This document shows, piece after piece, positions 24,889 to 25,250 of a stretch of DNA of 41,736 nt; the stretch's first letter is position 1, and the number at the start of each line of letters is the position of its first letter. The notes beneath the pieces were generated by a model, which did not search any database, had not been told where the DNA came from, and saw only the letters and a list, made by a program, of their open reading frames with translations. Position numbers and translations under genes: made by a program. Source of the stretch: a virus (Duplodnaviria > Heunggongvirae > Uroviricota > Caudoviricetes); IMG/VR virus record IMGVR_UViG_2529292910_000010, positions 1 to 41,736 of that record. The stretch is one strand, 5' to 3'.

Positions 24889-25250
24889 TTTAAGTTGTGT
24901 GGCGAAGTAACCACTCTTAACAGATTAAGATAAAATTTGCGGACCGCGGTAATTTTTTTTGCTAAATTAAAGCCATATAAAAAATAAGATCCATAAGAAA
25001 TTATTAGTATACTAAGGTTTAACATGGCTACTATTGCGCAATCAAAGAAACAAAAAAACTTAAAATTGGTTTTTACACCAGCAGTTCTGGGACTATCCGC
25101 AGCCATTCAGTTGCTAAGCAAGCAATTGAAAATCTGTATAATACTTGCGTAACCGTTACGAATAATCATTTTGATACCATCTATAGAAATAAAAAGTTAA
25201 AAATAGCTTTTATAAATAAAGATACAAAAGCTAAATATTTCTTCGGCTAC

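Follow-up and report, generated by a model that had tools for sequence, protein, structure and literature searches.

The late promoter is predicted beyond an inserted cassette

We analysed a 41,736-nt stretch of DNA (IMG/VR record IMGVR_UViG_2529292910_000010, positions 1-41,736; hereafter the window) that represents a lambdoid prophage with its early-right and late operons on the minus strand. Comparative evidence makes it likely that the promoter on which its late antiterminator Q acts, pR', is separated from the Q gene by an inserted cassette: we place this Q-dependent late promoter beyond the cassette, at 24960-24915, and its leader and terminator at 24914-24867. Three independent comparisons back this placement, namely with cassette-free relatives, with the mapped late promoter of the Sakai Stx phage, and between the sequence before the -10 hexamer and the subtype of Q. 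Together, the invariant core AAGAGTGGTTAC, a -10 hexamer in register with it and a Q-specific palindrome locate the promoter.

The Q gene (26797-26435, minus strand) encodes a protein of 120 aa that ends in ...LEME and matches Pfam PF06530 over its full length (175 bits, E 4.5e-52), the family called Q21 in the scheme of Yin et al. (PMC9388147). Its direct match to the Q21 structures 6P18/6JNX is weak (E 0.0018). The protein is 100% identical to Q of phage cdtI, 73% to that of phage Stx2_14040, 47-48% to those of 933W, Sakai and H-19B, and ~18% to Q21 of phage 21. As an earlier note on this DNA had described, Q ends directly against a bidirectional intrinsic terminator: the stop codon (26437-26435) abuts the hairpin at 26410-26434 (A6-GGGCA-TTTC-TGCCC-T5, T5/6), whose predicted folds on the two strands have energies of -13.0 and -13.4 kcal/mol (z -2.95 and -4.2). 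We read this terminator as serving two converging units, the early-right operon with Q at its end and the cassette.

The boundaries of the cassette were taken from relatives. Phage cdtI has the same order of Q, cassette and downstream sequence at 98.8% identity. The alignment of the Stx2a phage Stx2_14040 with the window breaks off at 26439 and picks up again at 24960, 22 nt replacing 1.47 kb, and within 44 nt of its Q stop this phage has sequence homologous to window 24960-24509. Because the alignment breaks at these two points, the insert is placed at ~24961-26434 (1,474 bp); it has low GC, runs on the strand opposite to Q and comprises two genes and the bidirectional terminator, which is missing from the cassette-free relative and thus belongs to the inserted DNA. 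Phage SfV shares the window's terminator and downstream genes but its Q is of lambda type, as is its pR' (TTGCAT-17-TAAGAT, with an AACGAT pause element); its homology to the window runs from the terminator (24890) onward only. The breakpoints of Stx2_14040 and SfV thus bracket a Q-type-specific module at 24960-24891, which is where a cognate promoter and Q site would be expected. The distance from the Q stop to the predicted transcription start site (TSS) is 1,519 nt in the window, against 41 nt in phage 21, 21 nt in Sakai and 44 nt in Stx2_14040, so that pR' does not directly adjoin Q here as it does in the usual layout of the Q21 family.

The earlier note had put the late promoter and Q site at 24893-25250. 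Their placement across the cassette from Q holds up against the relatives, the Sakai start site and the covariation with Q; ~290 of those 358 bp, by contrast, are cassette DNA, and the late-promoter and leader DNA narrows to 24867-24960 only. The remainder, 24961-25250, consists of the upstream region of the cassette and the first ~76 codons of its first gene. The palindrome AGTATACT that the note had pointed out is present at 25006-25013. Its TATACT was rejected as a late promoter: it is cassette DNA missing from cassette-free relatives, it lies 10 nt before the ATG of a cassette gene, and it has no usable -35 on either strand.

Start site and core promoter elements

Sy et al. 2020 (PMC7547250) mapped the TSS of the Sakai Stx-phage PR' using differential RNA sequencing and reported cleavage by RNase E (GU|AUU) at +173 and an RNA that ends at +258. 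In VT2-Sakai, both landmarks fit only if +1 is the bracketed A of GATAAG[A]GTGGTTAC; in this register, TATCAT occupies -12 to -7 and TTTACG lies 16 bp upstream of it, within the end of the Q gene. The window counterpart, GTTAAG[A]GTGGTTAC, occurs once in the window. Since it matches the mapped Sakai start context, the predicted late TSS is the A at 24915 (minus strand) and the predicted -10 hexamer is TAATCT at 24927-24922 (-12 to -7), in register with the Sakai TATCAT. The window core is homologous to Sakai PR' from -4 to ~+50. As a sigma-70 promoter, the site is recognisable by homology only, its core being that of Sakai PR' from -4 to +9.

An alignment of 9 divergent relatives showed A-11 and T-7 to be invariant amid a variable stretch, and -4 to +9 to be invariant throughout. 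An IMG/VR scan with the promoter core returned at least 119 loci, a redundant sample in which proportions are indicative and the number of sequence classes is a lower bound. Among the loci listed, the -10 always had the form xAnnnT (102/102), in 15 hexamer variants. An alternative -10, CTTAAT, located 2 nt further upstream and 17 bp from TTACCG, was discarded, as it is not kept as xAnnnT in relatives. Upstream, an A8 tract (24953-24960, minus strand, -45 to -38 of pR') provides the first bases common with cassette-free relatives; it resembles a proximal UP-element subsite and may offset a poor -35. Near the Q stop, the window has no further copy of either the promoter core or the palindrome, and in the 72 listed cargo-bearing loci both are missing at distances of up to 200 nt from that stop.

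The window pR' block was matched in 947 of 5,426 complete E. coli genomes. Genome papers on Shiga toxin-producing E. coli report no identifiable PR' or qut for prophages with non-933W Q types (PMC9729726, PMC6266700), and the core AAGAGTGGTTAC with its in-register -10 may locate PR' in such phages.

A short palindrome covaries with the subtype of Q

A 9-bp palindrome, GCGGTCCGC, occupies 24947-24939 on the minus strand (-32 to -24) and is the sole exact copy in the window; with the A that follows it and leads into an A/T tract, the candidate Q-binding element (QBE) spans 24938-24947 (-32 to -23). The upstream Q proteins of the 102 listed loci were clustered at 85% identity, and the sequence from -40 to -13 was tabulated per cluster. 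Across 13 Q clusters, the element (-33 to -18, within the 25 bp before the -10) matched the Q cluster one-to-one apart from rare one-base variants, and this covariation held with or without intervening cargo.

The window-type Q cluster, with a distance from Q stop to TSS of 865-2255 nt, carries GCGGTCCGC exactly in 20 of its 23 listed loci and one-base variants in the other 3. The same motif occurs in 8/8 listed loci of the Stx2_14040-type cluster, whose Q is 73% identical and whose Q stop lies 33-44 nt from the TSS. The motif is GCGTACGC with O104-type Q (1121-3017 nt), ACGATCGT with 933W-type Q (mostly 21 nt), ACAATCGT with PhiR40-type Q (531-634 nt), GTTATAAC with S88-type Q (798 nt) and TGGAATTCCA with two singleton Q clusters (9 nt). 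Every motif is a short palindrome, imperfect in the case of ACAATCGT, followed by an A- or T-rich tract and centred at about -28. The subtype-specific palindrome is the best candidate for the QBE, since it follows the Q subtype irrespective of the DNA in between. The QBE of Q21 consists of two direct 8-bp repeats between -35 and -10; no such direct-repeat element was detected in the window, where only partial repeats of 6-7-bp period coincide with the palindrome.

Leader RNA and terminators

The initial transcribed region (24899-24914, minus strand) is invariant, forms a 5' hairpin GUGGU...GCCAC and contains TGGTTACTTC, the sole candidate for a sigma-dependent pause element (SDPE). Within it, TGGTTAC(T/A)T(T/C) at +3 to +12 is invariant in relatives. 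It is followed by a first, tR'-like late terminator at 24891-24867 (minus strand, +25 to +49), in which a CCCGC-loop-GCGGG hairpin with conserved stem and variable loop precedes U6. The first 52 nt of RNA fold into the 5' hairpin and the terminator hairpin at -20.1 kcal/mol (z -4.26), in agreement with the strong minus-strand terminator that the earlier note had called at 24865-24888, and the SfV annotation marks the same terminator. Stopping at this site would give an RNA of ~49 nt, a layout for which the curated terminator of phage 21 at +3 to +50 (OL657228) is a precedent. The window thus has an intrinsic terminator between the predicted promoter and the late genes, one of the marks of a Q21-family switch. 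A second late terminator, at 24558-24541 (minus strand) behind an open reading frame (ORF) of 65 aa, is more convincing than the weak and non-significant hairpin at 24833-24812 (z -1.2).

Homology to Sakai and H-19B stops at 24862 (~+54), and the 74-nt Hfq-binding 3' moiety of StxS, which in Sakai precedes tR' at ~+258, is not found in the window. Rfam gave no match above threshold. A match to STnc130 at 24777-24899 on the plus strand, antisense to the late leader, scored 28 bits against a gathering score of 55 (E 0.15) and is probably due to chance; the identity was dismissed as sub-threshold and on the wrong strand.

Proposed mechanism and rival explanations

We consider it probable, on these comparisons, that the window carries a late antitermination switch of the Q21 family whose halves lie 1.5 kb apart. 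In cassette-free relatives ~35 bp connect Q with its promoter, and the cassette would have taken their place. Q would be made from the early-right operon, which would end at the terminator at 26434-26410, and would reach the promoter by diffusion. Transcripts started without Q would stop at the hairpin and U6 at +25 to +49 as a ~49-nt RNA; when present, Q would bind the upstream element and join an RNA polymerase that pauses early in transcription, and the Q-loaded polymerase would pass the terminators at 24891-24867 and 24558-24541 into the lysis and morphogenesis genes. These genes do lie downstream on the pR' strand.

Several observations weigh against this reading. The promoter and candidate QBE assignments are all comparative, their support being homology, synteny, covariation and RNA folding, from which we infer that the promoter is active, which site Q binds, where polymerase pauses and how efficient termination is. 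TTACCG, at 19 bp from the -10, makes a poor -35, and a 17-bp spacer would select ACCGCG. A consensus promoter scan of 23500-27500 made no call at 24952-24922, although such a scan, which returned 8 promoter-like matches against 8.8 expected from shuffles in this AT-rich region, is uninformative for a promoter with a weak -35. The pause candidate TACTTC (+7 to +12) lacks the terminal T that 933W (TACATT) and Stx2_14040 (TACTTT) keep, and no conserved hexamer with both A2 and T6 occurs in the first 25 nt. With a palindrome at -32 to -24 in place of the direct repeat of Q21 at -27 to -12, the binding mode is not simply transferable. The Sakai counterpart of the first hairpin is evidently read through, the reported product being 258 nt, and the efficiency of the first terminator is uncertain for this reason. 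Finally, the large terminase gene (~15779-17150, minus strand) appears to have lost ~1.07 kb internally relative to intact phages, 1,979 nt of the window aligning to 3,048 nt there, and only the ORF for the gpA nuclease domain is still intact. The prophage is therefore probably defective for packaging, and the Q switch may no longer matter in this strain.

Other explanations were weighed against the same evidence. It is very unlikely that the late promoter lies elsewhere, within the cassette at 26300-26434 or at the consensus site at 24472-24445, with the 24915 block as a relic or the promoter of an unrelated small RNA. The consensus scan of the minus strand does give ATGATA-17-GATAAT at 26350-26322 and ATGATA-16-TATAAT (10/12) at 24472-24445 and nothing at 24952-24922, yet such matches are no commoner than in shuffled sequence; the 26350 site is in cassette DNA that cassette-free relatives do not have, and the 24472 site is beyond two terminators, directly before an AraC-like moron gene, with no link to Q subtype. 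The 24915 block, by contrast, matches a mapped PR' start and covaries with Q.

We also regard it as very unlikely that the late genes are expressed mainly by antiterminated early-right transcripts reading across the cassette, with 24915 making a Q-independent short RNA (StxS- or 6S-like) or serving the 65-aa ORF. In lambda, N-modified pR transcripts do yield some Q-independent late expression, which lends this idea a precedent. A short RNA derived from PR' can likewise be functional in itself, StxS being an example (PMC7547250). Against it stand the bidirectional terminator directly behind Q, the loss of Sakai homology at 24862 with the 74-nt StxS moiety missing, and the element before the -10, whose match to Q subtype over 13 clusters would be hard to explain if Q acted elsewhere. 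Equally, there is little likelihood that the arrangement is a decaying remnant, in which the cassette broke the coupling of Q and pR' in a defective prophage and left the switch dead in this genome. The terminase deletion, a frameshift in the first cassette gene and a Q without the 6-24 aa tail of cassette-free relatives would all fit decay. Yet Q is 100% identical and the stretch from Q to pR' 98.8% identical to cdtI, which was deposited as a complete phage genome; cargo at the junction goes together with a short Q tail in all 23 listed loci of this Q cluster; and PhiR40_1, also a deposited phage genome, bears cargo too. Since cdtI and PhiR40_1 both carry cargo at the junction of Q and pR', the arrangement is compatible with phage genomes deposited as complete, even though the present copy may be unable to package. 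The paper describing cdtI (Asakura 2007) calls it an inducible prophage in its title.

Comparison with known Q systems

The predicted switch resembles that of phage 21 (Q21-pR'21; OL657228; 6P18/6JNX) in its PF06530 protein, in a weak xAnnnT -10 (AACACT there, TAATCT here), in a terminator within the first ~50 nt and in a Q-specific DNA element before the -10. In phage 21, however, the -35 begins 7 nt past the Q stop; the QBE is the direct repeat ATTGAGCA/AATGAGCA; and a clear SDPE (TAAGCT, +2 to +7) is present, whereas none is evident in the window.

The PR'-StxS-tR' region of 933W and Sakai Sp5 and Sp15 (PMC7547250) shares the start context AAG[A]GTGGTTAC, the 5' hairpin and the first hairpin with its U-tract, and the Q proteins are 47% identical. 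Unlike the window, Sakai has its -35 within the Q coding sequence and its palindrome is ACGATCGT. Its 258-nt terminated product is processed to the 74-nt StxS, where the window has a TrmB-like ORF instead. Lambda, with Q-pR'-6S RNA-tR', follows the same overall logic, in which a constitutively active promoter yields a short terminated RNA and Q lets transcription continue into the lysis and structural genes, but its Q belongs to the unrelated family PF03589, its QBE is asymmetric and non-repeat, and its -10-like pause element is AACGAT.

The junction of Q and pR' as a cargo hotspot

A PF06530 Q lay upstream on the same strand in 101 of the loci listed from the IMG/VR scan. The Q stop was 9-44 nt from the TSS in 29 of these 101 and 0.5-3.0 kb away in the other 72, whose gaps formed at least 29 sequence classes with GC of 0.31-0.42. 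In 25 of the 29 listed classes, all cargo ORFs were antisense to Q and the late operon. The class of the window (1,519 nt) occurred in three listed loci, and two more listed classes held 47-67% identical alleles of its gene pair, a DUF6731 protein and a protein of four transmembrane (TM) segments.

E. coli genomes sampled with the junction as query likewise had other prophages with different inserts there: a 404-aa protein with a nucleoid-associated-protein pair in O104:H4, a diverged DUF6731 pair in p10A, a 280-aa ORF with IS1 in PD7, a forward-oriented WYL gene in S88 and a 148-aa antisense ORF in PhiR40_1. The last was considered as a relative of the 147-aa ORF of the window and proved unrelated on comparison.

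Twenty cargo proteins were tested against PADLOC. The strongest matches were to PDC-S20 (c4, 443 aa, 3.5e-176) and to KwaB of Kiwa (c25, 294 aa, 2e-150). Two proteins matched HEC-04 / ATPase-Toprim (c28, 483 aa, 4e-47; c26, 596 aa, 2e-36), and others matched NsnA (c8, 386 aa, 6e-45), PDC-M53A (c5, 340 aa, 2e-32), PDC-S42 (c19, 293 aa, 2e-27) and PDC-M68A / HNH (c15, 248 aa, 7.5e-27); one 363-aa protein (c23) gave only a weak match to the metallo-beta-lactamase fold. The junction thus combines conserved flanks with alternative cargo that includes known defence systems. Because 72 of the 101 listed loci hold cargo of at least 29 classes, several with defence matches, we regard it as a cargo hotspot. 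Searchable literature held no description of a hotspot at this junction.

The C-terminal end of Q differs between the two arrangements. Among listed loci where Q adjoins pR', the protein has a tail of 6-24 aa beyond a conserved LEM(D/E) motif, and this tail overlaps the promoter; in listed cargo loci, Q ends 0-8 aa past the motif. The tail seems dispensable. Because the tails of cargo-bearing Q are this short, insertions evidently land just behind the LEM(D/E) motif.

The prophage hotspots described in 2022 (PMC9122126) are similar in having conserved flanks and many mutually exclusive low-GC cassettes, a sizeable fraction of which match known or candidate defence systems, and differ in phage type and site. 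Here, in addition, the cargo comes to lie between a regulator gene and the promoter that this regulator targets, and most of it is antisense to the flanking operons. It is possible, though we hold it rather doubtful as a joint claim, that the junction in 933W/QuuD-like lambdoid prophages is an undescribed hotspot of mostly antisense defence cargo and that the pair of DUF6731 and four-TM proteins, found there as three diverged alleles, is a new anti-phage system. If this were true, a corollary would be that Q proteins of this branch of the Q21 family recognise a short palindromic site and not a direct repeat; since the palindrome lies between the late promoter and the divergent promoter of the cargo, Q might, on binding there during induction, silence the cargo as well.

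Taken singly, the site would be a Q-dependent late promoter of the ordinary kind, unusual in where it lies. The recurrent splitting of Q from its promoter by antisense cargo, together with a palindromic Q-linked element, is worth following up. Descriptions of Q antitermination treat Q and pR'/qut as one adjacent cassette, and the preference of lambda Q for acting in cis has been tied to proximity (Echols 1976, Burt & Brammar 1982, as cited in PMC5303824). With 0.5-3 kb of foreign antisense DNA between Q and pR', the window and ~70% of its listed relatives are natural tests of proximity. The cargo classes, about one third of which match defence families, also amount to a list of candidate defence systems that includes the DUF6731 pair.

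The cassette of the window

The first cassette gene (25024-25964, plus strand) encodes a DUF6731 protein (PF20505, PHROG 7651) and is split by a frameshift: a single 313-aa ORF (orf54) in phage cdtI corresponds to ORFs of 42 and 237 aa in the window. The cause is a 1-nt deletion in an A-run at ~25051, after ~10 codons, which is the sole indel in 1.5 kb relative to cdtI. It could reflect a pseudogene, phase variation or a homopolymer sequencing error. The second gene (25968-26411, plus strand) encodes a protein of 147 aa with ~4 predicted TM segments (PHROG 8552, function unknown). The upstream region (24961-25023, plus strand) comprises the 5' untranslated region, a Shine-Dalgarno sequence AAGG at 25014-25017 and a putative promoter, for which TAAATT (24963-24968), TATAAA (24976-24981) and TATACT (25008-25013) are candidate -10s. 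No conserved -35 was found for it in 24961-25023, the interval in which, from the layout, the cassette promoter must lie, back to back with and divergent from pR'.

PADLOC gave no match for either cassette protein, and Pfam returned DUF6731 alone and nothing for the 147-aa protein. A relationship of DUF6731 to PDC-M53A or another hotspot protein was rejected, the hhalign probability being ~0.1% or less both times, and no paper in the searchable literature mentions DUF6731. By PADLOC, Pfam, PHROG and hhalign, the cassette thus matches no described defence family. Its candidacy as a defence system comes from location and architecture alone, by analogy with Kiwa (KwaA/KwaB) and PDC-M53. These are likewise two-gene modules of a ~300-aa soluble protein and a multi-TM protein of ~150-190 aa, and they sit at the same junction in other prophages; in contrast to this likeness, they have no detectable sequence or profile similarity to DUF6731 or the 147-aa protein, and the gene order of the cassette is the reverse of Kiwa's.

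Prophage layout and neighbouring genes

The remaining gene order is that of a lambdoid prophage. A CI-like repressor is encoded at 33735-34427 (plus strand), and the minus strand upstream of the late region carries nin-region genes, a DUF968 gene and Q. The first late ORF behind pR', the 65-aa ORF at 24545-24742 (minus strand), encodes a TrmB-like winged helix-turn-helix protein (PHROG 331), whose homologue is labelled TrmB-family in the phiSTEC1575-Stx2k annotation. Further downstream on the minus strand, as the earlier note had stated for the genes beyond the first terminator, come an S21-type holin (20267-20052), a lysozyme (19652-19119) and Rz (18820-18353), after which terminase, portal and protease genes continue the late operon.

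Two further genes lie between the late promoter and the holin gene. An AraC-family helix-turn-helix gene (237 aa, PHROG 1450; 23696-24472, minus strand) stands directly behind the best sigma-70 consensus match of the region, the site at 24472-24445; it is located past the second late terminator and has the appearance of a moron under a promoter of its own. In the Stx2k, O104:H4 and S88 prophages, the same AraC-family gene comes after the 65-aa ORF. The other gene (20968-22929, minus strand) has a product of 653 aa that combines DUF1737, SASA (sialate O-acetylesterase) and DUF6645 domains, a set reminiscent of the NanS-p-type esterase of Stx prophages.

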